Origin: a virus
Taxonomy: Duplodnaviria > Heunggongvirae > Uroviricota > Caudoviricetes
DNA length: 13,222 nt
Virus record (IMG/VR): IMGVR_UViG_2654588181_000002
Coordinates: 1 to 13,222 of that record
Direction: 5' to 3' (one strand)
Positions 2,042-13,222 of this stretch are shown in pieces (the stretch's first letter is position 1; each line of letters begins with the position of its first letter). Made by a program: the position numbers and the translations under genes. Under the pieces are notes generated by a model. That model saw nothing but the letters and a program-made list of their open reading frames with translations. It made no database searches and had not been told where the DNA came from.

Positions 2042-2870
2042 GACGATGCCCTCCGCTGATATTCAGGAGACGGTGAATATGAAAATTAGCCTTATCCGCC
2101 AGACGAATACGTTCAGCTTGCAAGTTAAGAAGGGTTTCTACCAGAACCTGATGTGCCTGCGGATCCGAAAGAGTTACCTTGCGCAGAGCACGTAGTGCAG
2201 CTGTTACATAACTGAGTTTATGTAAGTCTTCATCATTCAGACGAGTGAGGGCTGGGACAGTAGCCATGATGGCAGCCTCCTTGATCGGTGAAATACTTCC
2301 ACCACCGGAAACGCCAATTTCGCTGGTGGTGAACTGAACGGGGTTGGCGTAACCGGTGATCAAGGAAACCGGCGCATCTTTCGATGCCCCCGCCCAGCCC
2401 ACCATAACTTTGATGTGAGCAAATGCGGACGATAAAAAAGACGCTGGCGCGTCATATATCGCCTTGATCAATTCCAGGACGCCAATCCCGGCACCCGCTT
2501 TATAAGGTGCCTGAACAGTGTAACGTCCCGGAATGGCAGAATCAATGTGCTGGTGGTCCTTCACACTCAACAAAATCACGCCTGAATTTCCACAAAGGGC
2601 TAAAGCACTCATGCGGGTAGTCTTTGCGAAGATAGATAACGCGCTGTGTTTCTGGCTCCCAACGAATAACATGAACATAAAGTCCTCTTCCGTCACGAAA
2701 CCAGCGGTTAAGTTCCTGCACAACTCGCCCCCCACAGTCAGGTAAAGTTCTCTGTGGTTACTTACAGCCAGGAGATTTGGTAATCTGCATTCATGCCGTA
2801 ACAACAGGTGTTCAGCGACGCTGACCACCAGCTGTTGCGACAAACGGTTATTTGCCGTTAAACTGTTCAT
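2034..2870 (-). CDS. hypothetical protein (278 aa) in the lambdoid replication-gene position; function unknown
   Basis: Long ORF with ATGA overlap to the upstream CII-like gene (2867-2870). No Walker A/P-loop, no N-terminal HTH and no other motif I can assign. Confidence 0.6.
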   Translation of the reverse strand: MNSLTANNRLSQQLVVSVAEHLLLRHECRLPNLLAVSNHRELYLTVGGELCRNLTAGFVTEEDFMFMLFVGSQKHSALSIFAKTTRMSALALCGNSGVILLSVKDHQHIDSAIPGRYTVQAPYKAGAGIGVLELIKAIYDAPASFLSSAFAHIKVMVGWAGASKDAPVSLITGYANPVQFTTSEIGVSGGGSISPIKEAAIMATVPALTRLNDEDLHKLSYVTAALRALRKVTLSDPQAHQVLVETLLNLQAERIRLADKANFHIHRLLNISGGHRHA

Positions 2871-3436
2871 GCGTTAGTTTCTCCACAACCAGAAGCAATC
2901 GACGCCACGACGCCCGGAGCTGCACACTCGCGGGCGTCATTACTTTCTGAAATGCAAAAGATTTTGTAGACCAGTGCTGCATGCTCCTGCAGCTTCGAAA
3001 TTGAGAGATACAGCTCGTCGTTAATTGCTGTCTTCTCATGCGGTTCCACTACACCGTCTTCGATTGCTGAACGAATCTGTTTTGAATAACTGCCGATCTG
3101 TTCAATGACTTCCAGCAGACGCTGGTTAATATCGGCGTTGTCCACATCCTCGACGTCAGGAAGAGACACAAAGACGCCATTTGCAGACTGCGCCACAGCG
3201 TCAGCAATGAAGTGAGTTCCACCAGCACGTTGCAAAATCATTGCCCATCCCAGCGGGAAAATCTGATCGCCATCGGCACGAAGGCGGTTAAATAATGCGT
3301 TCTCTGTTACATCCAGCCAGTCAGCTGCTTCAGCGTAACCACCCGGCAACTTTGCGATAGTTTTTCTGACAGCTTTCACGTACCACTCAGGCTGTTTTTC
3401 TACTTTCCAGTGATGCTTACCCACGGTTAGCCTCAT
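2867..3436 (-). CDS. phage CII-like regulatory protein (YmfL/YdaT-like)
   Basis: 189 aa, immediately downstream of the Cro-like gene on the same strand, in the cII position of a lambdoid immunity region. Resembles the e14 YmfL / Rac YdaT group (memory-based). No obvious Shine-Dalgarno upstream of the ATG at 3434-3436. Confidence 0.6.
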   Translation of the reverse strand: MRLTVGKHHWKVEKQPEWYVKAVRKTIAKLPGGYAEAADWLDVTENALFNRLRADGDQIFPLGWAMILQRAGGTHFIADAVAQSANGVFVSLPDVEDVDNADINQRLLEVIEQIGSYSKQIRSAIEDGVVEPHEKTAINDELYLSISKLQEHAALVYKIFCISESNDARECAAPGVVASIASGCGETNA

Positions 3437-3467
3437 CGTTCTGTGGTTAAAAATTGAAAGTGTTCTG

Positions 3468-3668
3468 CTAATCTTTCGGATAGATATCCGGTCTTAAGTC
3501 AGATTTCGTAATTGCACCTGACGTGCATTGCTCAAGTTTTTTAGCCAGCACAAAACTGGCTTTTTTATAGCCATTGAAAACCAGCCGTAAGTAGCCAGGT
3601 GTTGAGCCAACTTTTCCGGCCAACTCGCCCTGCTGTTCTTTGGTTAAAGAGTCCCAATACGCTTTCAT
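3468..3668 (-). CDS. Cro-like HTH regulator (YdaS/CroE-like)
   Basis: 66-aa product MKAYWDSLTKEQQGELAGKVGSTPGYLRLVFNGYKKASFVLAKKLEQCTSGAITKSDLRPDIYPKD, divergent from the CI-like gene. GGAGG lies 10 nt upstream of the chosen ATG (3666-3668). The longer ORF-track version (to 3971) would overlap the repressor gene and is rejected. Confidence 0.7.
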   Translation of the reverse strand: MKAYWDSLTKEQQGELAGKVGSTPGYLRLVFNGYKKASFVLAKKLEQCTSGAITKSDLRPDIYPKD

Positions 3669-3670
3669 AC

Positions 3671-3758
3671 AATATGTACCTCCGGTGTACATATTACATG
3701 ATTGAAATGAACCTTCAAGATACTTGTACCTTAACGGTACAAGAGTTTTAATTTCGTT
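3671..3758. promoter_or_regulatory. divergent immunity-switch control region: two inverted-repeat operators plus candidate pR (minus) and pRM (plus) promoters
   Basis: Operator 1 is AATATGTAC-N7-GTACATATT (3671-3695, perfect 9-bp arms). Operator 2 is CTTGTACC-TTAAC-GGTACAAG (3723-3743, perfect 8-bp arms). Candidate pR on minus strand: -35 TTGAAG (3719..3714), 17-bp spacer, -10 TAATAT (3696..3691), overlapping operator 1. Candidate pRM on plus strand: -35 TTGTAC (3724-3729), 17-bp spacer, -10 TTTAAT (3747-3752), ending about 7 nt before the repressor ATG. Confidence 0.6.
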
Positions 3759-4433
3759 ATGAAAACAATCCATGACATCCGGCGGTCTAACGCCAGAAAA
3801 CTGAGAGATGGTGTTGGCGGGAATTCTTCCTTTGCCACTATGATTGATCGCGAGCCAACCCAGACCAGCAGGTTTATGGGAGATGGTGCTACTAAAAATA
3901 TCGGTGACAGCATGGCACGACACATCGAAAAATGTTTCGACCTGCCTGTCGGATGGCTCGATCAAGAACACCAGACAACGAACATCACAAAAAAACCTGA
4001 TGTTTCAATCACTAATAAACAAATCACATTAGTCCCTGTCATATCATGGGTACAGGCCGGAGCATGGAAAGAAGTTGGATATTCTGAGGTTGATTTGAGC
4101 ACAGCAGAAACGTATCCCTGCCCTGTACCCTGTGGGGAAATGACTTATATCTTGCGGGTGATAGGTGATTCAATGATTGATGAGTACCGCCCGGGAGACA
4201 TGATTTTTGTCGATCCTGAAGTACCTGCCTGCCACGGTGACGACGTTATTGCATTGATGCACGATACAGGTGAAACCACCTTCAAAAGGTTGATAGAAGA
4301 TGGGACACAGCGTTATCTCAAAGCGTTAAACCCAAACTGGCCTGAGCCTTACATTAAGATCAACGGTAATTGCTCTATAATTGGTACAGTGATTTTCTCA
4401 GGAAAACCAAGAAGATACAAAATCAAAGCCTAA
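3759..4433 (+). CDS. CI-like prophage repressor (HTH + LexA-like S24 autopeptidase domain; CohE-like)
   Basis: 224 aa with an N-terminal HTH region and a C-terminal S24-type domain (VIGDSM... and FKRL Ser/Lys dyad context). Divergent from the Cro-like gene, and no Shine-Dalgarno before the ATG, consistent with a leaderless pRM transcript. Confidence 0.9.
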   Translation: MKTIHDIRRSNARKLRDGVGGNSSFATMIDREPTQTSRFMGDGATKNIGDSMARHIEKCFDLPVGWLDQEHQTTNITKKPDVSITNKQITLVPVISWVQAGAWKEVGYSEVDLSTAETYPCPVPCGEMTYILRVIGDSMIDEYRPGDMIFVDPEVPACHGDDVIALMHDTGETTFKRLIEDGTQRYLKALNPNWPEPYIKINGNCSIIGTVIFSGKPRRYKIKA

Positions 4434-4444
4434 TCAATGTTTAT

Positions 4445-4468
4445 GAACCTGCTTCGGCAGGTTTTTTT
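4445..4468 (+). terminator. intrinsic terminator downstream of the repressor gene
   Basis: ACCTGC-TTCG-GCAGGT hairpin (4447-4462, UUCG tetraloop) followed by a run of seven T (4462-4468), 12 nt after the repressor stop. Confidence 0.75.
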
Positions 4469-4472
4469 ATAC

Positions 4473-4505
4473 TTGACAATGTACCTTTGAGATACATAAT
4501 GTACC
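4473..4505 (+). promoter_or_regulatory. candidate early-left promoter (pL-like) with repressor half-sites
   Basis: -35 TTGACA (4473-4478), 16-bp spacer, -10 CATAAT (4495-4500). The ATGTACC motif occurs twice (4480-4486 and 4499-5505 region, second copy at 4499-4505), sharing the GTAC core of the operators at 3671-3743. Confidence 0.6.
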
Positions 4506-4582
4506 CAAGCGAAACAACGAACAGGCAGGACGCCCACGAAGTAGCCGCCTGGGGCATATGAAGTCCAGGATGATTCGTTAGC

Positions 4583-4608
4583 AACAAAAAAGCGCCTACA
4601 GGACGCTT
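4583..4608 (-). terminator. candidate intrinsic terminator on the minus strand, downstream of the 4845-5279 gene
   Basis: Minus strand reads AAGCGTC-CTGTA-GGCGCTT followed by TTTTGTTGC (plus coordinates 4590-4608 for the hairpin, A-run 4586-4591). It lies about 240 nt beyond the minus-strand gene's stop and inside the 5' leader of the plus-strand 68-aa gene. Confidence 0.45.
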
Positions 4609-4666
4609 AGCTCTTTAACAATCTGGTCCCCATCAACAAGTAACTGATAACTTGAGGAGATGTGAA

Positions 4667-4873
4667 ATGCACAAAACAGAACCCAAAATCGTCGCGCCTG
4701 GCTACACAGATGAGGAAATTTATGAGTGGATGACAAAGAAGCTGGCAGCTATAAACCAGCTTCGTGAAGTGCTGTCTTATCGACAGGAAACAATAGACTC
4801 CTTAAAAAAACTGGATCAGGAAATCACGGTTTTATCACAGGATGTTACTTTAGATATTGTGCAGACAAATTAG
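4667..4873 (+). CDS. hypothetical small acidic, predicted coiled-coil protein (68 aa), first gene after pL
   Basis: ATG at 4667 preceded by GAGGAG (4655-4660); the ORF-track 4652 start would be a TTG. Product MHKTEPKIVAPGYTDEEIYEWMTKKLAAINQLREVLSYRQETIDSLKKLDQEITVLSQDVTLDIVQTN. Not N-like (not Arg-rich). The 3' end overlaps the convergent minus-strand gene by 29 nt. Confidence 0.5.
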   Translation: MHKTEPKIVAPGYTDEEIYEWMTKKLAAINQLREVLSYRQETIDSLKKLDQEITVLSQDVTLDIVQTN

Positions 4874-5279
4874 GATCCCATTCATTTTCGTCAAAATCAT
4901 CAAAGTGATGAATTTGTGATCTCCAGTCTCGATAATCTAAAAATTTCTGGGCGGTTACGCTTATTTTATCAAGTGTGAGTTCATCCTGAATTGAAAGAAG
5001 AAGTTCATCAAATTTCATCTCATTAATCTGTTTTGGCATCCAGTGATGCTTCATCAGAATAAGGTGAACCAGAGCCTTTTTCCCATTCAACTGATTATAG
5101 GGAGTGCCGAATTTCTTCCGGTGCTCATGTAAGACAAGGTCCAAAAGAGTAAGTAATGTTGCCCTTGATTCAACTTTGCTTATTTCGACTGATGACACTA
5201 CCCCACTGATTTCAATGCCCCGATACTTTCCAACATTTTCACAGTGGGATTTGTACAGCGTATAGATATTACCGGACAT
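4845..5279 (-). CDS. hypothetical protein (144 aa), AT-rich antisense 'moron' gene; function unknown
   Basis: Clean 144-codon ORF opposite to all neighbouring early-left genes, visibly more AT-rich than its flanks, with an AGGA-like RBS upstream of the ATG (5277-5279) and its own candidate terminator. No family recognised. Confidence 0.6.
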   Translation of the reverse strand: MSGNIYTLYKSHCENVGKYRGIEISGVVSSVEISKVESRATLLTLLDLVLHEHRKKFGTPYNQLNGKKALVHLILMKHHWMPKQINEMKFDELLLSIQDELTLDKISVTAQKFLDYRDWRSQIHHFDDFDENEWDPNLSAQYLK

Positions 5280-5294
5280 TTCTTTTCCTTTTGC

Positions 5295-5343
5295 GTTGTT
5301 GGGGATAACCAGATTAACCGAATCCTTGTTGTTGGGGAATAAC
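5295..5343. repeat. two direct copies of GTTGTTGGGGA(A)TAAC, 33 bp apart, just upstream of the 4845-5279 gene
   Basis: 5295-5309 GTTGTTGGGGATAAC and 5328-5343 GTTGTTGGGGAATAAC. Position fits a regulator binding site or promoter element for the minus-strand gene. Confidence 0.4.
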
Positions 5344-5605
5344 TAGGTCCACCTCGCCTGATGTGGCTAAAAGCAGGCACATAACAGCTAAGTATTTTCA
5401 ACCAGAGAGAATCCTTAGCGTTGTGGTGAATGCGGCTCAGCGCACGCGGGTTAAGGTTGAGGCTGACAGTCGACCTTCTGTGGATACCCACCCGCCTGGT
5501 GTGCAACCTTCGCCAGGCACCGGGAGGCACCCGGCACCACAACTTTATGCTGTGTGTAGTCTTGGCGGTACCAGCTTGTACCCTTGCTTCCGGCTGGTAC
5601 CGTCC

Positions 5606-5704
5606 TTTTTACAAAACAGAGAAGAGCATCACCGGACGACGGGCTCATAACCCAATCCATCCGGGCGGCAGTCACCGCAGGTGTTCTTCTCTGTTTTGTG
5701 GAGA
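5606..5704. other. long imperfect palindrome / stem-loop within a GC-rich non-coding block
   Basis: Perfect 14-bp inverted repeat ACAAAACAGAGAAG (5611-5624) / CTTCTCTGTTTTGT (5686-5699), extendable with wobbles to about 20 bp, enclosing a ~49-nt GC-rich loop. No flanking U-run on either strand, so not a classical terminator. Confidence 0.4.
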
Positions 5705-5747
5705 AACTAACCGACCTTGCAGGGTCGATATGATGAGGAGCAGCAAA

Positions 5748-6110
5748 ATGGCTAGCGAACGCAGTACTGATGTGCAGGCATTTATCGGGGAGCTGGACGG
5801 CGGCGTATTTGAAACCAAAATCGGCGCAGTTCTCAGTGAAGTCGCTTCCGGTGTGATGAACACGAAAACCAAAGGTAAGGTCTCGCTCAACCTAGAAATC
5901 GAACCGTTTGATGAGAACCGAGTGAAAATCAAACACAAACTCTCATATGTTCGCCCGACTAACCGCGGGAAAATTTCCGAAGAAGACACCACCGAAACGC
6001 CGATGTATGTCAATCGCGGTGGTCGCCTGACTATTCTGCAGGAAGACCAGGGACAGTTGCTGACTCTTGCCGGTGAACCTGACGGAAAACTCCGCGCAGC
6101 AGGTCGTTAA
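5748..6110 (+). CDS. YfdP-like prophage protein (120 aa), function unknown
   Basis: Start at ATG 5748 (MASERSTDVQAFIGELDGG...) preceded by GAGGAG (5735-5740). The ORF-track extension back to 5430 translates to Arg/Cys/His-rich sequence typical of GC-rich non-coding DNA and is rejected. First gene of a block recalled as the CPS-53 yfdPQRST-like cluster. Confidence 0.65.
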   Translation: MASERSTDVQAFIGELDGGVFETKIGAVLSEVASGVMNTKTKGKVSLNLEIEPFDENRVKIKHKLSYVRPTNRGKISEEDTTETPMYVNRGGRLTILQEDQGQLLTLAGEPDGKLRAAGR

Positions 6111-6175
6111 TATCGTTTTTAATTAACTGATTATTTATCTCATCACTGAATATCTTTATATAGTGAGGACTTATT

Positions 6176-7000
6176 ATGTCTCAGAACTTAGACGCAACCG
6201 CAATTAATCAAATCCATGCCCTTATTTCTGCTCAGGGTGTTAATGAAATTATCAGTAAGATTGGTGCCGATGCTGTGGCATTGCCTGAGAATTTCCGCAT
6301 TCATGATCTGGAAAAATTTAATTTAAATCGCTTCCGTTTCCGTGGTGCGCTTTCCACTGCCAGCATCGATGATTTTACCCGTTATTCTAAAGATCTTGCA
6401 GATGAAGGCACCCGCTGCTTTATCGATGCTGATAATATGCGTGCCGTCAGTGTGCTTAACCTAGGTACTATTGATGAACCAGGTCACGCAGATAACACCG
6501 CCACACTCAAACTGAAAAAGACAGCACCGTTCTCTGCTCTGTTGTCTGTTAACGGCGAGCGTAACTCCCAGAAGTCACTAGCAGAATGGATTGAAGACTG
6601 GGCCGACTATCTTGTGGGCTTTGATGCTAATGGTGACGCTATTCAGGCAACAAAAGCGGCTGCGGCTGTCCGTAAAATCACGATTGAAGCAAACCAGACC
6701 GCTGATTTTGAAGATAATGACTTCAGCGGCAAACGCTCCCTGATGGAGTCTGTCGAAGCGAAGACCAAAGACATTATGCCAGTGGCATTTGAATTTAAAT
6801 GCGTTCCGTTTGAAGGTCTGAAAGAACGTCCGTTTAAATTACGCCTCAGTATTATCACTGGCGATCGTCCTGTACTGGTTCTGCGCATTATTCAGCTGGA
6901 GGCGGTGCAGGAAGAAATGGCTAACGAATTTCGTGATCTGCTTGTTGAGAAATTCAAGGACAGCAAAGTAGAAACCTTTATTGGTACTTTCACCGCCTGA
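6176..7000 (+). CDS. YfdQ-like prophage protein (DUF2303-type), 274 aa
   Basis: ATG 6176 with GAGGA (6165-6169) upstream. Product [30 protein letters not shown]... recalled as YfdQ-family. Confidence 0.75.
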
Positions 7001-7012
7001 TTTCATTACTGC

Positions 7013-7034
7013 AAATGCCCCTGCGGGGGCATTT
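7013..7034 (+). other. perfect 9-bp hairpin between the yfdQ-like and yfdR-like genes
   Basis: AAATGCCCC-TGCG-GGGGCATTT (stem 7013-7021 / 7026-7034). The only T residues are inside the stem, so it is a weak terminator at best; possibly an mRNA stability or processing element. Confidence 0.35.
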
Positions 7035-7127
7035 ATGGAAACGTAATTTACTCAATAATCGCCGGATGGTGAGGGATTCTTTTTACCAGAATTCAGCGCG
7101 GTGCAGCGCATATACGTGGAGAACAAA

Positions 7128-7664
7128 ATGTCATTTATTAAAACTTTTTCCGGGAAGCATTTTTATTATGACAGGATAAATAAAGACGACATCGATATTA
7201 ACGATATCGCGGTTTCCCTTTCAAATATCTGTCGCTTTGCCGGTCATCTTTCGCACTTCTACAGCGTCGCCCAACATGCGGTTCTTTGCAGCCAGCTGGT
7301 GCCGCAGGAATTTGCTTTTGAAGCGTTAATGCATGATGCAACAGAAGCGTATTGCCAGGACATTCCCGCACCACTGAAACGCCTTCTTCCTGACTATAAA
7401 CAAATGGAAGAAAAAATAGACGCCGTAATCCGTGAGAAATACGGGTTACCCCCAGTTATGAGTACGCCCGTGAAATATGCCGATCTCATCATGCTGGCAA
7501 CCGAACGCCGCGATCTCGGGCTTGATGATGGCTCTTTCTGGCCTGTACTGGAAGGTATCCCGGCAACAGAGATGTTCAACGTGATTCCACTGGCACCGGG
7601 CCATGCCTACGGGATGTTTATGGAACGCTTTAACGAGTTATCGGAGTTACGCAAATGCGCATGA
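7128..7664 (+). CDS. HD-domain phosphohydrolase (YfdR-like)
   Basis: 178 aa. H...HD metal-binding signature (...AGHLSHFYSVAQHAV... and ...ALMHDATEAY...). ATG 7128 preceded by GGAG (7117-7120); the ORF-track GTG at 7101 is rejected. Stop overlaps the next gene's start. Confidence 0.85.
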   Translation: MSFIKTFSGKHFYYDRINKDDIDINDIAVSLSNICRFAGHLSHFYSVAQHAVLCSQLVPQEFAFEALMHDATEAYCQDIPAPLKRLLPDYKQMEEKIDAVIREKYGLPPVMSTPVKYADLIMLATERRDLGLDDGSFWPVLEGIPATEMFNVIPLAPGHAYGMFMERFNELSELRKCA

Positions 7665-8017
7665 ATGTTTTCGAAATGGAAGGGTTTCTTCGTGGGAGAT
7701 GTGTACCGCGAGATCTGAAAGTAAATGAAACAGATGCTGAATACCTGGTGCGTAAATTCGATGCGCTTGAAGCTAAATGTGCAGCACAGGAAAACAAAGT
7801 AATACCAGTGTCAACTGAACTGCCACCAGCAAATGAAAGTGTTTTGTTATTCGATGCTAACGGAGAAGGCTGGCTAATTGGCTGGCGTTCTCTCTGGTAC
7901 ACCTGGGGACAAAAAGAAACCGGAGAATGGCAGTGGACATTTCAGGTCGGGGACCTTGAAAACGTCAATATCACTCACTGGGCAGTAATGCCAAAAGCAC
8001 CGGAGGCTGGAGCATAA
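7655..8017 (+). CDS. DUF551-like phage protein (YfdS-like)
   Basis: 120 aa, Trp-rich C-terminal half (...GWLIGWRSLWYTWGQKETGEWQW...) typical of DUF551. Start overlaps the previous stop (7655-7664); the stop overlaps the next start (8017). Confidence 0.7.
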   Translation: MRMNVFEMEGFLRGRCVPRDLKVNETDAEYLVRKFDALEAKCAAQENKVIPVSTELPPANESVLLFDANGEGWLIGWRSLWYTWGQKETGEWQWTFQVGDLENVNITHWAVMPKAPEAGA

Positions 8018-8322
8018 TGACCACTTTTACCGACAAAGAACTGATTAAAGAAATTAAAGAGCGTATCAGCAGCCTTGACGTGCGAGACGATATTGAGCGC
8101 CGTGCTTATGAAATCGCACTCCTATATCTGGAAGTAGAACCAGATGAACGCGAAGCTTATGAATTATTCATGGAAAAGCGTTTCGGTGACTTAGTAGATC
8201 GTCGGAGAGCAAAAAACGGCAATAACGAATACATGGCATGGGATATGACTCTCGGTTGGATCGTCTGGCAGCAACGAGCTGGTATCCATTTTTCAACAAT
8301 GTCACAGCAAGAGGTGAAATAA
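8017..8322 (+). CDS. hypothetical phage protein (YfdT-like), 101 aa
   Basis: Translationally coupled at both ends (ATG within ATAATG at 8017; TAATG at 8320-8324). Assigned as the last gene of the yfdQRST-like cluster by position and size only. Confidence 0.55.
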   Translation: MTTFTDKELIKEIKERISSLDVRDDIERRAYEIALLYLEVEPDEREAYELFMEKRFGDLVDRRRAKNGNNEYMAWDMTLGWIVWQQRAGIHFSTMSQQEVK

Positions 8323-8672
8323 TGGAGCCATACAGCCTCACACTCGATGAGGCCTGTCATTTTCTCAAGATATCCAGACCGACTGCCATTAACTGGATAC
8401 GCACAGGGCGTCTTCAGGCAACACGCAAAGATCCCACTAAGAATAAATCTCCTTACCTCACAACACGACAAGCCTGCATTGCGGCTCTTCAGTCTCCGCT
8501 GCATACTGTCCAGGTGAGCGCGGGTGATGGCATAACAGAGGAAAGAAAATGTCACTCTTCCGCAGAGGTGAAATATGGTACGCCAGTTTCACATTGCCGA
8601 ACGGTAAAAGATTTAAACAGTCTCTTGGAACAAAGGACAAAAGGCAGGCGACAGAACTCCATGACAAGCTAA
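8322..8672 (+). CDS. AlpA/Xis-type excisionase / DNA-binding regulator
   Basis: N-terminus [38 protein letters not shown]... is the AlpA-family HTH. ATG 8322 with GAGG (8311-8314) upstream. The ORF runs 116 codons and its last 124 nt overlap the integrase start in another frame, so the true C-terminus is uncertain. Confidence 0.7.
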
Positions 8673-9712
8673 AGGCTGAAGCATGGCGGGTCAGCAAACT
8701 TGGTGAAATACCTGATATAACGTTCGAGGAAGCGTGTGTCAGGTGGCTTGAAGAGAAAGCACATAAAAAATCACTGGACGATGACAAAAGCCGGATCGGA
8801 TTCTGGCTTCAACATTTCGCAGGAATGCAACTAAGAGACATTACTGAATCAAAAATTTATTCAGCAATGCAGAAAATGACGAACCGGCGTCATGAGGAAA
8901 ACTGGAAACTCAGGGCAGAAGCATGCAGAAAAAAAGGGAAACCTGTTCCAGAATACACGCCAAAACCAGCGTCCGTTGCAACGAAGGCTACGCATCTTTC
9001 ATTTATAAAGGCCCTACTAAGAGCCGCAGAGCGTGAATGGAAAATGCTGGATAAGGCACCAATTATTAAAGTGCCTCAACCAAAGAATAAACGGATCCGC
9101 TGGCTGGAGCCCCATGAAGCACAAAGGCTGATTGATGAATGTCCGGAGCCATTAAAGTCTGTTGTTGAATTTGCACTGGCAACAGGCTTAAGACGCTCGA
9201 ACATCATCAACCTTGAATGGCAACAAATAGATATGCAGCGCCGGGTGGCATGGATAAACCCGGAAGAGAGTAAATCAAACCGCGCAATTGGCGTTGCGCT
9301 GAATGATACTGCATGTCGCGTATTGAAAAAACAAATCGGGAATCATCACCGTTGGGTATTTGTGTACAAGGAAAGCTGTACCAAACCAGACGGAACGAAA
9401 GCGCCAACAGTAAGGAAGATGCGGTATGACGCAAACACAGCCTGGAAAGCGGCGCTGAGACGGGCTGGTATTGATGATTTCAGATTTCACGACTTGAGAC
9501 ACACCTGGGCAAGTTGGCTGGTTCAAGCCGGAGTCCCGTTGTCAGTGTTACAGGAAATGGGAGGCTGGGAGTCTATCGAAATGGTTCGTCGATATGCTCA
9601 CCTTGCACCTAATCACCTTACCGAACACGCACGGCAAATAGACTCGATCCTGAACCCATCGGTCCCAAATTTGTCCCAGTCAAAAAATAAGGAAGGTACT
9701 AATGATGTGTAA
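8549..9712 (+). CDS. tyrosine recombinase, phage integrase (e14 IntE-like)
   Basis: 387 aa. N-terminus [34 protein letters not shown] and C-terminal catalytic region ...[42 protein letters not shown] (R..H..R..Y). Stops 14 nt before the 3' end of the tRNA. Confidence 0.95.
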
Positions 9713-9725
9713 CTTATTGATTTTA

Positions 9726-9801
9726 ATGGTGCCGATAATAGGAGTCGAACCTACGACCTTCGCATTACGAATGCGCTGCTCTACCAACTGAGCTATATCG
9801 G
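9726..9801 (-). tRNA. thrW: tRNA-Thr (anticodon CGU)
   Basis: Minus strand reads GCCGATATAGCTCAGTTGGTAGAGCAGCGCATTCGTAATGCGAAGGTCGTAGGTTCGACTCCTATTATCGGCACCA: 7-bp acceptor stem, anticodon loop UUCGUAA, T-loop GGTTCGA, encoded CCA. Sits between proA and the integrase, as expected for a thrW-integrated island. Confidence 0.97.
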
Positions 9802-9854
9802 CCCTGAAAGGACATGTTCACGAACGTGAATCACGGTGGACAAGGTTAAAACTA

Positions 9855-9916: not shown

Positions 9917-11170
9917 TTACGCACGAATGGTGTAATCACCAATGCCGATCCACTTGTAAGTGGTCAGTGCTTCCAGCCCCATTGGGCCACGCGCGTGGAG
10001 TTTTTGTGTGCTTACCGCCACTTCCGCACCCAGACCAAACTGGCCGCCGTCGGTAAAACGCGTAGAGGCGTTAACGTAAACAGCGGACGAATCCACTTCG
10101 TTAACAAAACGCTGGGCGTTGCGCATATCGCGGGTCAGGATCGCATCGGAGTGTTGTGTGCCGTGTTCACGAATATGGGCGATGGCATCGTCAAGATCGC
10201 TGACGATTTTGACGTTCAAATCTAATGACAGAAACTCATCGTCATACTCTTCGGCTTTAACAGCAACCACCTTCGCAGGGCCTGCCTGCAACTGCGCCAG
10301 TGCAGCTGCATCTGCGTGTAATGTCACGCCGCTTTCCGCCATTTGTTTGCTTAATGCGGGCAGGAAGCTATCGGCGATGTTTTTATTCACCAGCAACGTT
10401 TCAACCGTATTACATGTGCTCGGACGCTGAGTTTTCGCGTTGACGATCACTTTTAATGCTTCAGCGATCTCTACACTTTCATCAACGTAAATATGGCATA
10501 CGCCTATACCACCTGTGATCACCGGGATTGTCGACTGTTCACGGCACAGTTTATGCAAACCAGCGCCACCACGCGGGATCAGCATGTCGATGTATTTATC
10601 CATACGCAGCATTTCACTGACCAGCGCACGGTCAGGATTATCAATCGCCTGCACGGCACCCGCCGGTAAGCCGCAGGATTTCAGGGCGTCCTGAATCACC
10701 GCCACCGTTGCAGCGTTAGTGCGACACGTTTCTTTGCCACCGCGCAGGATCACCGCATTACCGGTTTTCAGGCACAGCGAAGCGACATCAACCGTCACGT
10801 TCGGGCGCGCTTCATAAATCACGCCAATAACCCCCAGCGGTACGCGACGACGCTCAAGACGCAGGCCGCTGTCCAGTACGCTGCCATCGATTACCTGCCC
10901 CACCGGATCGGCGAGGTTACACACCTGGCGCACATCATCGGCAATGCCTTTCAGCCGTGCGGGCGTCAGTGCCAGACGGTCAAGCATCGCTTCGCCAAGG
11001 CCATTGGCACGCGCGTCAGCAACATCCTGGGCGTTAGCGTTGAGGATGATTTCGCTTTGTGCTTCCAGTTCATCGGCGATTTTTTCCAGCACGCGATTTT
11101 TTTCGCGGCTGGAGAGTTGCGCTAATTTATACGAGGCTTGCTTCGCGGCAATGCCCATTTGTTCCAGCAT
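9917..11170 (-). CDS. proA: gamma-glutamyl phosphate reductase
   Basis: 417-aa product [58 protein letters not shown]..., recognised as E. coli ProA. GGAG sits 7 nt upstream of the ATG, 11 nt after the proB stop. Confidence 0.98.
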
Positions 11171-11181
11171 CAGCCTGCTCC

Positions 11182-12285
11182 TTAACGGGTAATCATGTCA
11201 TCACGGTGAACGGCAACCGGGCCGTATTCATATCCCAGTATTGCATCAATTTCTTGCGAGTGGTGCCCGGCAATACGGCGTAATGCATCGCTGTTGTAAC
11301 GACTGACGCCGTGGGCGATATCGCGACCTTCGAGGTTGCAAATGCGGATGACTTCACCACGCGAGAAATTGCCAGTCACGCTTTTAATGCCTTTCGGCAA
11401 CAGGGAGCTGCCGCGTTCAAGAATGGCGGCAGTTGCCCCTTCATCTACCGTGATTTCACCCGCCGGCGGCGCACCGAAAATCCAGCGTTTACGGTTTTCA
11501 AGCGGAGTCGCCTGGGCATGGAACAGCGTACCGACGGAAATGCCTTCCATCACATCACCAATAACGCCCGGCTTGCTGCCCGCGGCAATAATGGTGTCGA
11601 TACCCGCACGGCAAGCCACGTCAGCGGCCTGCAATTTGGTACTCATGCCGCCAGTTCCGAGGCCTGAAACGCTGTCACCGGCAATCGCGCGCAGTGCGTC
11701 ATCAATGCCGTAAACATCTTTAATCAGTTCTGCCTGCGGATTGCTGCGCGGGTCAGCGGTATACAAACCTTTTTGATCGGTCAGCAGCAACAGTTTATCG
11801 GCACCCGCCAGAATCGCCGCCAGCGCAGAAAGGTTATCGTTATCGCCGACTTTAATCTCTGCCGTAGCGACAGCATCGTTCTCATTGATTACCGGAACGA
11901 TATTGTTATCGAGCAACGCACGCAGGGTGTCGCGGGCGTTCAGGAAGCGTTCACGGTCTTCCATATCAGCACGGGTCAGCAGCATTTGCCCGACGTGAAT
12001 GCCATAAATCGAAAACAGCTGTTCCCACAGTTGAATCAGTCGACTCTGCCCTACCGCTGCCAGCAGTTGTTTCGAGGCGATAGTCGCTGGCAGTTCCGGG
12101 TAACCCAGGTGCTCACGTCCGGCGGCGATCGCGCCCGACGTCACAATAACAATCCGATGCCCGGCGGCATGTAACTGCGCGCACTGGCGAACAAGTTCAA
12201 CGATATGGGCACGGTTCAGACGGCGCGATCCGCCTGTTAGCACACTGGTGCCGAGTTTTACCACCAGCGTCTGGCTGTCACTCAT
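11182..12285 (-). CDS. proB: glutamate 5-kinase
   Basis: Product [66 protein letters not shown]..., recognised as E. coli ProB. Start set at ATG 12283-12285 (367 aa) rather than the ORF-track 12372, whose 29-codon extension is not part of ProB. Confidence 0.97.
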
Positions 12286-12473
12286 GATTCTCTGCCATTC
12301 AATTTTAGGAAAAATGATATCAAACGAACGTTTTAGCAGGACTGTCGTCGGTTGCCAACCATCTGCGAGCAAAGCATGGCGTTTTGTTGCGCGGGATCAG
12401 CAAGCCTAGCGGCAGTTGTTTACGCTTTTATTACAGATTTAATAAATTACCACATTTTAAGAATATTATTAAT

Positions 12474-12572: not shown

Positions 12573-12627
12573 ATGAAAAAGAGCACTCTGGCATTAGTGG
12601 TGATGGGCATTGTGGCATCTGCATCTG
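12573..12627 (+). pseudogene. phoE: phoE 5' fragment (signal-peptide codons 1-18), interrupted by IS1
   Basis: ATG 12573 encodes MKKSTLALVVMGIVASAS, the PhoE porin signal peptide, then runs directly into the IS1 left end at 12628. Divergent from proB as in E. coli. Confidence 0.85.
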
Positions 12628-12682
12628 GGTGATGCTGCCAACTTACTGATTTAGTGTATGATGGTGTTTTTGAGGTGCTCCA

Positions 12683-12958
12683 GTGGCTTCTGTTTCTATC
12701 AGCTGTCCCTCCTGTTCAGCTACTGACGGGGTGGTGCGTAACGGCAAAAGCACCGCCGGACATCAGCGCTATCTCTGCTCTCACTGCCGTAAAACATGGC
12801 AACTGCAGTTCACTTACACCGCTTCTCAACCCGGTACGCACCAGAAAATCATTGATATGGCCATGAATGGCGTTGGATGCCGGGCAACCGCACGCATTAT
12901 GGGCGTTAGCCTCAACACGATTTTACGCCACTTAAAAAACTCAGGCCGCAGTCGGTAA
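12683..12958 (+). CDS. insA: IS1 InsA (transposition inhibitor / N-terminal part of the InsAB' transposase)
   Basis: 91-aa product [91 protein letters not shown] with a zinc-finger-like CxxC...CxxC N-terminus. Confidence 0.95.
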
Positions 12959-13222
12959 CCTCGCGCATACAGCCGGGCAGTGACGTCATCGTCTGCGCGG
13001 AAATGGACGAACAGTGGGGATACGTCGGGGCTAAATCGCGCCAGCGCTGGCTGTTTTACGCGTATGACAGGCTCCGGAAGACGGTTGTTGCGCACGTATT
13101 CGGTGAACGCACTATGGCGACGCTGGGGCGTCTTATGAGCCTGCTGTCACCCTTTGACGTGGTGATATGGATGACGGATGGCTGGCCGCTGTATGAATCC
13201 CGCCTGAAGGGAAAGCTGCACG
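12934..13222 (+). CDS. insB: IS1 insB reading frame (partial; expressed as InsAB' by -1 frameshift at the A6C slip site)
   Basis: A6C motif TTAAAAAAC at 12932-12940. The -1 frame after it reads [96 protein letters not shown] to the window end. In this copy the insB frame has a TAG at 12907-12909, upstream of the slip site. Confidence 0.8.

Follow-up and report, generated by a model that had tools for sequence, protein, structure and literature searches.

A near-identical copy of the Escherichia coli K-12 yfdQ-yfdR-yfdS-yfdT cluster in a defective SfIV/SfV-type prophage at thrW

In Escherichia coli K-12, multicopy supply of yfdQ and yfdR together with yfdS or yfdT inhibits chromosomal initiation (Noguchi & Katayama 2016, PMC4776307). 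Purified YfdR binds DnaA domain I directly in a Phe46-dependent manner and is a moderate competitor of both DiaA and DnaB in DnaA binding, and extracts were inhibitory to oriC replication in vitro; YfdQ, YfdS and YfdT showed no tight binding to YfdR or DnaA (PMC4776307). The effect, obtained with multicopy supply from pBR322, is mild, with generation times almost unchanged. Neither initiation nor hydroxyurea resistance changed when yfdQRST was deleted, and the authors grant that the effect may be an artefact of over-expression (PMC4776307). Noguchi & Katayama themselves also pointed out the homologues in phage SfV (PMC4776307). The initial annotation had stated that overexpression inhibits initiation and that YfdR interacts with DnaA, and both statements are accurate.

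The cryptic prophage CPS-53 (KpLE1) of K-12 (b2359-b2363) harbours the same five genes, yfdP-T, as the window, the whole stretch of 13,222 nucleotides analysed here (IMG/VR virus record IMGVR_UViG_2654588181_000002). Gene order and lengths (120, 274, 178, 120, and 101 aa) are the same, as are the 127-nt spacer between yfdQ and yfdR, the hairpin within it, and the overlaps. However, CPS-53 sits at argW with intS/torI, whereas the window's copy lies at thrW with SfIV/SfV-type xis and int. The similarity between the window and K-12 is confined to positions 5729-8375, and K-12 lacks the upstream repressor and PL region that the window has. In the Shigella serotype-converting phages SfIV (gp30-gp34) and SfV (orf28-orf31) the cluster DNA is 99.7% and 99.3% identical to that of the window, respectively, and the attachment neighbourhood, with int adjoining thrW, is also shared. 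Nevertheless, SfIV and SfV are complete viable phages, whereas the window's copy is deleted and IS-flanked.

The host element is an SfIV/SfV-type serotype-converting prophage, integrated at tRNA-Thr (thrW) adjoining proA. Window positions 2857-9772 match the SfIV early region through int (99.2% identity), and positions 488-1521 match SfIV tail-fibre genes (97.3% identity). Most replication, lysis, and structural (late) genes were lost by an internal deletion, and the prophage copy is therefore defective. On one side of the deletion lies a DnaD/HTH_36 replication gene (1494-1808) in truncated form and on the other a short tail-fibre gene (856-1506), everything between them being gone, and IS elements or fragments flank the prophage. 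As a whole, we consider it likely that positions 6176-8322 hold an intact orthologous yfdQRST set in the distal part of a PL-type early-left operon of this defective prophage at thrW, controlled by its repressor and inhibiting initiation at raised dosage. The following features were found from yfdQ to the attachment site:

6176-7000, + strand: yfdQ, 274 aa, DUF2303 (Pfam PF10065, 2e-92; PHROG 210; 99.3% protein identity to YfdQ of K-12 CPS-53)
7013-7034, + strand: stem-loop of 9 bp, AAATGCCCC-TGCG-GGGGCATTT, in the yfdQ-yfdR spacer (RNA fold)
7128-7664, + strand: yfdR, 178 aa, HD-domain 5'-deoxynucleotidase homologue (97.8% to K-12; PDB 2gz4, 3.3e-14; PHROG 318)
7655-8017, + strand: yfdS, 120 aa, C-terminal DUF551 (95.8% to K-12; PF04448; PHROG 583)
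8017-8322, + strand: yfdT, 101 aa, without Pfam family (94.1% to K-12; PHROG 660)
8322-8672, + strand: excisionase gene xis, HTH_17 (Pfam HTH_17, 1.6e-8; PHROG 2907 excisionase, 1.1e-50), predicted to be translationally coupled with yfdT
8549-9712, + strand: tyrosine integrase, SfIV/SfV type (Pfam Phage_integrase, 3.2e-48; SfIV gp28)
9727-9802, - strand: tRNA-Thr(CGU) thrW, prophage attachment site adjoining proA (ARAGORN; Rfam tRNA; RefSeq context)

Positions 6176 and 8322 coincide with the first base of yfdQ and the last base of the yfdT stop codon, and the four ORFs in this interval are all on the + strand. The cluster, first described as yfdQ-R-S-T-like, is a true orthologous copy: pairwise alignment to K-12 YfdQ, YfdR, YfdS, and YfdT, in which low similarity would speak against this assignment, gave 94-99% protein identity. 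Identical DNA in RefSeq carries the labels yfdQ, yfdR, phage protein/yfdS, and yfdT, and these labels together with the identity to K-12 place the assignment far beyond chance. The yfdQRST DNA is 96.4% identical to that of K-12, without indels. All four ORFs are full length and free of frameshifts, so the orthologues of the gene set that acts in K-12 (yfdQ and yfdR with yfdS or yfdT) are present. Values of dN/dS against K-12 were 0.04-0.14 for yfdP, yfdQ, yfdR, yfdS, and yfdT, which corresponds to purifying selection on all five genes.

YfdQ belongs to DUF2303 (309.7 bits, cut-off 26.6), with residues 7-272 covering profile positions 2-269 of 269. YfdS reaches the DUF551 profile marginally (22.2 bits, cut-off 22.0) with residues 50-117. 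The gene yfdT holds a mosaic breakpoint relative to Stx2c phages, at which the match stops (query position 1945). The redundancy of YfdS and YfdT in the K-12 experiments could have been accounted for if the two were paralogues, but this was rejected (BLASTP E 0.76).

YfdR possesses the HD signature at H50 (SVAQH), H69-D70 (LMHDATE), and D119 (KYAD), in addition to E73 and D78. These residues align with those of the HD protein Atu1052 (PDB 2gz4), which places YfdR in the HD superfamily, and H69, D70, E73, D78, and D119 are the same in both proteins when YfdR is aligned to E. coli YfbR. The HD-domain phosphohydrolase proposed earlier in the cluster is thereby supported by both alignments. The four substitutions relative to K-12 YfdR (R16K, D23V, Q92R, E170D) leave H50, H69, D70, E73, D78, and D119 unchanged. 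YfdR matches PHROG 318, 'deoxyribonucleoside 5' monophosphate phosphatase', with 2.7e-110, but misses the YfbR family cut-offs (Pfam PF12917, 25.2 bits versus 25.9; NCBIfam NF003009 equivalog, 20.5 versus 122). YfbR, a dCMP phosphohydrolase and HD-domain 5'-deoxynucleotidase (PDB 2paq), and Atu1052 have the H...HD...D metal-binding signature and the equivalents of E73/D78 in common with YfdR, although YfdR is only ~26% identical to YfbR. Judged by its sequence, the HD protein of the window is a YfdR orthologue and not a YfbR equivalog. K-12 YfdR is a weak 5'-deoxynucleotidase of low affinity, according to work cited in PMC4776307.

The genes yfdR, yfdS, yfdT, and xis are, as predicted from their junctions, translationally coupled. 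The start of yfdR was set at ATG 7128, as in K-12 and RefSeq; the longest ORF starts at an in-frame GTG at 7101. The overlap of yfdR and yfdS is 10 nt (ATG 7655, TGA 7662-7664), one base is common to yfdS and yfdT (TAATG, 8015-8019) and one to yfdT and xis (TAATG, 8320-8324), and a GGAG/GAGG Shine-Dalgarno motif lies 5' of each start. Three of four junctions had been described as overlapping or sharing codons, which is true only if yfdT/xis is counted, because yfdQ and yfdR do not overlap and are separated by 127 nt (stop at 7000, ATG 7128). The hairpin in this gap is identical in K-12, and a Klebsiella prophage has a hairpin at the equivalent place with different stem bases. Its possible roles are those of a weak terminator, of an RNA 3'-end, or of a hairpin for processing; it was not called as a terminator, since it failed the T-tail rule of the terminator scan.

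Upstream of yfdQ, the following features were found:

3468-3668, - strand: cro-like gene, divergent from the repressor gene
3675-3741, no strand assigned: divergent promoter/operator region between the cro-like and repressor genes, with two 17-bp palindromic sites TGTAC-N8-TACA (3675-3691, 3725-3741)
3759-4433, + strand: cI-type prophage repressor, YmfK-like LexA family, S24 peptidase (Pfam Peptidase_S24, 1.5e-26; RefSeq 'ymfK: LexA family protein' in matching genomes)
4445-4464, + strand: terminator-like hairpin with T-run directly 3' of the repressor gene (scan: 8-bp stem, then TTTTTATACTT)
4473-4500, + strand: PL-type promoter candidate TTGACA-16-CATAAT (11/12 matches), with a third operator-like site (4480-4496) in its spacer, facing yfdP-yfdQRST-xis-int
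4845-5279, - strand: convergent ECs1072-family gene, between the PL-like promoter and yfdP
5390-5613, + strand: STnc100/PasD-like prophage sRNA element upstream of yfdP, sub-threshold (Rfam RF02076, 43.4 bits versus gathering 47; E 3e-8; full-length model match)
5748-6110, + strand: yfdP, 120 aa (PHROG 204, 1.2e-49), always adjoining yfdQ

The order is thus repressor, terminator, PL-like promoter with operator, a small ORF, the convergent ECs1072-family gene, the STnc100-like element, yfdP, yfdQ, hairpin, yfdR, yfdS, yfdT, xis, int, and tRNA-Thr. At sequence level this corresponds to a lambdoid early-left (PL) operon, with a repressor, operator repeats shared by the PR/PRM region and the promoter, and a xis-int end. 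A pattern search of the window found TGTAC-N8-TACA at 3675, 3725, and 4480 only (chance expectation 0.06), and the operator-like sites were also picked up as repeat families D2/D3. We infer that the element at 4473-4500 functions as a promoter. The repressor sequence shows an AG cleavage-site motif, the GDSM serine, and a downstream lysine, and 100% identical copies of it are present in many IMG/VR prophages.

In the GC-richer stretch 5290-5750, no PHROG match was found for + strand ORFs, and one - strand ORF matches PHROG 3651, of unknown function. The STnc100-like RNA is a better account of this stretch than a protein, albeit below threshold. The STnc100 family has been described as prophage-borne (bioRxiv 10.64898/2026.05.13.724894).

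The intact LexA-like repressor and the strong upstream PL-type promoter candidate bearing its operator motif make SOS derepression plausible, and the proposal that derepression could switch the cluster on fits this arrangement. During lysogeny, the S24 repressor would hold the operon off; its self-cleavage, stimulated by RecA upon DNA damage, or its loss would allow the cluster to be transcribed with xis and int. By analogy with the K-12 orthologues, YfdR would bind DnaA domain I at Phe46, in partial competition there with DiaA and the DnaB helicase; together with YfdQ and either YfdS or YfdT at raised dosage, initiation at oriC would be delayed and desynchronised. Since PL-like transcription must cross the convergent gene at 4845-5279 (- strand) and the hairpin at 7013-7034, yfdR-T need not be expressed once the operon is derepressed. 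In a live phage, inhibition of initiation would favour phage over host replication, and in this remnant the cluster would be at most an SOS-linked brake on initiation. Host takeover, the role initially suggested for the cluster, is not established as its natural function, given that the multicopy effect is mild, that the deletion is without initiation effect, and that the artefact caveat applies.

The distribution of the genes bears on their natural role. All 70 related IMG/VR loci (70/70) possess yfdP-yfdQ-yfdR, a full YfdS being encoded in 45/70 and a full YfdT in 29/70. Distant neighbourhoods were covered by two look-ups of the encoding contigs, in Klebsiella and Xenorhabdus, and in both a gene of the Pfam YfdP family lies beside yfdQ. 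Klebsiella prophages keep yfdP-Q-R at 58-64% identity despite different downstream genes. When viral contigs were searched with the YfdQ alignment, only 100%-identical copies were obtained, and these served for scoring the variability of neighbours. The evolutionary unit is yfdP-yfdQ-yfdR and not the four-gene set; yfdS and yfdT show mosaic variation and are frequently missing, which is hard to reconcile with a fixed machine of four genes.

Accordingly, yfdP-Q-R may be an early-phage module with its real job elsewhere, in nucleotide pools, HD-hydrolase counter-defence, or a DNA-associated YfdQ assembly. DnaA binding would be a side effect of over-supply, and yfdS and yfdT would be unrelated accessories of the exo-xis region. 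We regard this as rather unlikely, although it agrees with the retention of the triad in the loci above, with the conserved HD catalytic residues and low dN/dS, and with the published deletion result and artefact caveat (PMC4776307). The DUF2303 fold extends to phages that are only remotely related, Gordonia phage Herod among them, and lytic phages of Burkholderia and Vibrio carry it inside replication/repair modules; a target shared across these hosts would hardly be the E. coli DnaA interface. A YfdQ homologue of ~40% identity has also been solved with 36 chains in one entry (PDB 9o7m, 'YfdQ Protein'). A literature search found no publication on this entry, which was absent among the Foldseek PDB results for YfdQ. 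However, the Phe46-dependent binding of purified YfdR to DnaA and the inhibition of oriC replication by extracts (PMC4776307) speak against this reading. In addition, PADLOC detected no defence-system match among yfdP, yfdQ, yfdR, yfdS, yfdT, or their neighbours, the structural search with YfdQ gave no informative relative, and no result points to any specific alternative activity. In a more specific form, also doubtful, the triad, conserved across prophages of Enterobacterales, would be the functional unit, in which a large YfdQ homo-oligomer and the YfdR hydrolase take part in an undescribed early-phage activity (for example, counter-defence by degrading nucleotides or signals, or scaffolding associated with DNA), with DnaA binding secondary. 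If this were true, the hairpin after yfdQ and the upstream STnc100-like element would be regulatory parts of the yfdP-Q-R unit.

Of the 5426 complete E. coli genomes, 3300 (61%) carry the cluster, and defective remnants, K-12 CPS-53 and this window among them, have kept it under purifying selection. This could suggest a host-domesticated stress-tolerance module (H2O2, acid, MMS), kept for the benefit of the bacterium independently of phage biology or DnaA. As cited in PMC4776307, deletions of yfdQ and yfdS raise H2O2 sensitivity and deletion of yfdQ raises MMS sensitivity (Wang et al. 2010, Rooney et al. 2009); these phenotypes are nonetheless weak and come from screens. We consider domestication improbable, since the same genes occur in the viable phage SfIV, with the near-identical cluster, and also in Stx2c and cdtI phages, so that ongoing phage transmission explains both the purifying selection and the prevalence. 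A stress role would moreover be compatible with initiation control and does not exclude it. Finally, the cluster could be an unrecognised phage Rec module in place of exo/bet/gam in the early-left operon. It occupies the place of lambdoid Rec modules, with the immunity region on one side and xis/int on the other, and RecT, exonuclease, and SSB genes neighbour DUF2303 in other phages. This reading is highly improbable and largely refuted, as the fold search with YfdQ showed no similarity to Rad52, RecT, Erf, or Gam, and as the yfdP/yfdQ/yfbR-like trio also occurs in phages with a complete separate Rec module (ArgO145), a recombination role of the trio having been judged unlikely (Genome Res 2025, PMC12315714).

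The cluster is an ordinary near-identical copy of known prophage genes, and it is not novel. The genes and their K-12 orthologues have been published, as have the HD domain, the DnaA interaction, and the SfV homologues, which gives the locus little weight as a discovery. Its practical value lies in annotating the window correctly, as a defective prophage of SfIV/SfV type at thrW, and the comparative data mark yfdP-Q-R as the unit worth studying. Unlike in K-12, the cluster here is still preceded by its own SOS-sensitive repressor and PL-type promoter; therefore this copy, or intact SfIV, is better suited than CPS-53 for asking whether physiological derepression affects initiation.

Under the preferred reading, in which raised dosage of yfdQRST inhibits initiation, YfdR follows the same proposed logic as lambda P and B. 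subtilis SirA, where the initiator is bound and initiation at oriC is lowered. Similar to YfdR, SirA uses the DnaA domain I residue equivalent to Phe46 (PMC4776307). YfdR has no sequence or fold relationship with either protein, and its action in vivo requires YfdQ together with YfdS or YfdT. The DnaA contact of lambda P is with domain III, and lambda P also serves as the helicase loader, whereas YfdR is an HD-domain hydrolase homologue. YfdS differs from Ea22 in its N-terminal part, where the Ead/Ea22 coiled-coil signature is absent. Nonetheless, it has a portable DUF551 C-terminal domain in common with Ea22 variant V2 of lambda and Stx phages, and YfdS and the Ea22 variants occupy the same early-left position before xis and show the same mosaic behaviour.

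The four-gene observation at 6176-8322 was confirmed, and the yfdQRST feature is real and was rightly identified in the initial annotation. The genes and their downstream neighbours are as follows.

6176-7000, +, yfdQ, 274 aa (ORF table and sequence)
7128-7664, +, yfdR, 178 aa when started at the ATG; the longest ORF, 187 aa, opens at an in-frame GTG at 7101
7655-8017, +, yfdS, 120 aa (ORF table and sequence)
8017-8322, +, yfdT, 101 aa (ORF table and sequence)
8322-8672, excisionase ORF (xis), 116 aa; its last 124 nt lie within the longest ORF of the integrase
8549-9712, integrase (int), longest ORF

In the sequence, a GGAG/GAGG ribosome-binding motif lies 5′ of each of the four yfdQRST ORFs. 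Between yfdR and yfdS there is a 10-nt overlap, and a single base (TAATG) is common to yfdS and yfdT, as it is to yfdT and the excisionase gene. The description of three out of four junctions as overlapping stands when the yfdT/xis junction is included (R/S, S/T, T/xis), but not for yfdQ and yfdR, which are separated by a 127-nt spacer. The integrase start is ambiguous, with RefSeq using a TTG 45 nt later and the SfIV annotation the long form.

Alignment with the K-12 MG1655 CPS-53 region from RefSeq bore out the assignment, with identities of 272/274 for YfdQ, 174/178 for YfdR, 115/120 for YfdS and 95/101 for YfdT; the DNA is 96.4% identical across 2147 nt, with zero indels. The cluster is already known and common: of 5426 complete E. 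coli genomes, megablast found it in 3300, the copy number reaching six per genome, and RefSeq labels its genes yfdQ, yfdR (5′-deoxynucleotidase), phage protein/yfdS, and yfdT. In the family searches, YfdQ matched DUF2303 (2e-92) and YfdS was marginally over the cut-off for DUF551, while the Pfam search gave no family match for YfdT. YfdR was slightly under the cut-off for Pfam YfbR-like and far under that of the NCBIfam YfbR equivalog, and matched PHROG 318, 'deoxyribonucleoside 5′ monophosphate phosphatase' (2.7e-110). The HD motifs noticed in the cluster are located in YfdR (H50, H69-D70, D119, plus E73 and D78), where they align to the HD protein Atu1052 (PDB 2gz4, E 3.3e-14) and to E. coli YfbR.

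PDB entry 9o7m, 'YfdQ Protein', is a DUF2303 homologue about 40% identical to YfdQ, with 36 chains in one entry; the literature search did not find the publication behind it, and it was not among the matches of the Foldseek search against PDB. The AlphaFold2 model of YfdQ (pLDDT 77) found no informative relative among solved structures, and among viral models it matched only uncharacterised DUF2303 proteins, some from actinophages. PADLOC gave zero matches.

The window is chromosomal, with proB, proA and tRNA-Thr(CGU) followed by a prophage.

11182-12372, -, proB
9917-11170, -, proA
9727-9802, -, tRNA-Thr(CGU)
1494-1808, DnaD/HTH_36 replication gene, cut to 104 aa and abutting the tail-fibre gene
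856-1506, -, short tail-fibre gene, complete
49-315, +, rve_3 transposase fragment, C-terminal, IS3-family type
12683-12958, IS1 insA
2322-2409, -, C4 antisense RNA (Rfam, 82.3 bits, over threshold)
2434-2510, -, IsrK Hfq-binding sRNA (Rfam, 64.2 bits, over threshold)

The early region of Shigella phage SfIV through int is 99.2% identical to 2857-9772, and its short tail-fibre and tail-fibre-assembly genes are 97.3% identical to 488-1521. All of SfIV's lysis and head genes and most of its tail genes are absent. Together with the cut replication gene and the IS elements, this identifies an SfIV/SfV-type prophage at thrW, with late genes gone by internal deletion and IS elements at its borders. 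The element had been called a remnant prophage, in agreement with these deleted late genes, the 104-aa DnaD/HTH_36 remainder and the bordering IS elements. The deletion junction lies at about 1494-1520, where the replication gene meets the short tail-fibre gene. IS debris occupies both window ends (49-315, +, and 12627-13222), and the right-end IS1 stands where other E. coli have post-proB sequence; this IS load suggests that the host is Shigella-like or an IS-rich E. coli. The C4 and IsrK matches lie within or beside an ash-family ORF (2034-2870) in the early-right region.

Judging from the sequence, the immunity region is intact.

3759-4433, S24/LexA-like repressor, 224 aa, with AG, GDSM and Lys motifs
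3468-3668, cro-like gene, divergent from the repressor gene
2867-3436, CII/CP76-like gene
4445-4464, terminator-like hairpin directly 3′ of the repressor gene
4473-4500, PL-type (early-left operon) promoter candidate, TTGACA-16-CATAAT, near-consensus and the best promoter match of the region
4845-5279, -, ECs1072-family phage-associated gene (PHROG 5286), convergent to the presumed PL operon
5390-5613, +, STnc100-like element (RF02076), full-length but sub-threshold (43.4 bits, E 3e-8, where the gathering score is 47)
7013-7034, +, stable 9-bp hairpin directly 3′ of the yfdQ stop, in the yfdQ-yfdR spacer

The 17-bp palindrome TGTAC-N8-TACA has only three sites in the window (0.06 expected by chance), with 3675 and 3725 in the cro/repressor intergenic region and 4480 in the spacer of the promoter candidate. 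Operator-like sites shared in this way are characteristic of a PL promoter under repressor control, and with an intact repressor they make SOS-dependent derepression of the cluster plausible. The promoter candidate is followed by a 73-aa ORF, the convergent ECs1072-family gene, the STnc100-like element, yfdP, yfdQ, yfdR, yfdS, yfdT, xis and int. The ECs1072-family gene has its own terminator (4608-4590) and occurs in a minority of related loci, which marks it as a moron-like insertion. PL transcripts would have to cross this gene and the hairpin at 7013-7034. This hairpin has the same sequence in K-12, and in a Klebsiella prophage (L086) it occupies the same place with a stem of other bases; it was ruled out as a canonical terminator, being without a proper T-tail. 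The STnc100-like match sits in a GC-richer stretch labelled 'frameshifted hypothetical protein' in RefSeq and covered in the SfIV annotation by a 226-aa ORF (5430-6110) reaching into yfdP. A weak second such match (6992-7171, E 0.32) falls in the yfdQ-yfdR spacer. STnc100 is related to PasD sRNAs of Stx-type prophages (2026 preprint, bioRxiv 10.64898/2026.05.13.724894).

The background given in the initial annotation, in which overexpression of the K-12 genes inhibits initiation and YfdR interacts with DnaA, matches Noguchi & Katayama 2016 (PMC4776307); thus the hypothesis of the initial annotation is the published one, and as physiology it is still a hypothesis. In that study, K-12 yfdQRST was found as a multicopy suppressor of hda-185, with yfdQ and yfdR together with one of yfdS and yfdT as the minimal set and yfdP dispensable. 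Multicopy supply inhibited the over-initiation seen with the mutations hda-185, dnaAcos and seqA; in the wild type, initiation was mildly inhibited and desynchronised. Generation times were almost unaltered. Purified YfdR bound DnaA, strong binding to YfdR or DnaA was not seen for YfdQ, YfdS and YfdT, and extracts inhibited oriC replication in vitro. The authors wrote of this effect that it 'might be an artifact', and found initiation unaffected by yfdQRST deletion; they also proposed a lambda-P-like role in the ancestral phage and mentioned SfV homologues. We consider it probable that the window carries an intact orthologous block, part of a PL-type operon in a defective prophage of the SfIV/SfV type, and that this block would be repressed in the lysogen and, when derepressed or over-supplied, would act like the K-12 genes, its YfdR attaching to DnaA domain I with mild inhibition of initiation. 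The main alternative, that yfdP-Q-R is a conserved triad with a different primary function and a secondary DnaA effect, seems rather unlikely.

Among 70 IMG/VR loci encoding an identical YfdQ, with at least 2 kb of downstream sequence, YfdP and YfdR were present in all 70, full-length YfdS in 45 and full-length YfdT in 29. A Klebsiella prophage retains YfdP-YfdQ-YfdR (60, 58 and 64% identity), the genes after them being unrelated, and a Xenorhabdus prophage retains P-Q with yfdR disrupted. The yfdP/yfdQ/yfbR-like trio is common in lambdoid early-left operons and has been argued not to be a hidden recombination module (Genome Research 2025, PMC12315714). With dN/dS against K-12 of 0.04-0.14, all five yfdP-T genes are kept by selection; ongoing phage transmission is an easy explanation for this.

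In the phage collection, the cluster is 99.7% identical to that of SfIV and 99.3% to that of SfV, and about 97% identical in several Escherichia and Stx2c-converting phages, the Stx2c phage match ending at query position 1945, within yfdT. Relatedness between YfdS and YfdT was not detectable; in their behaviour both resemble the exo-xis region's mosaic DUF551/Ea22-type genes. Similarity to K-12 CPS-53, a cryptic E. coli prophage, extends only across 5729-8375, from yfdP through yfdT, and the excisionase here is unrelated to K-12 TorI.
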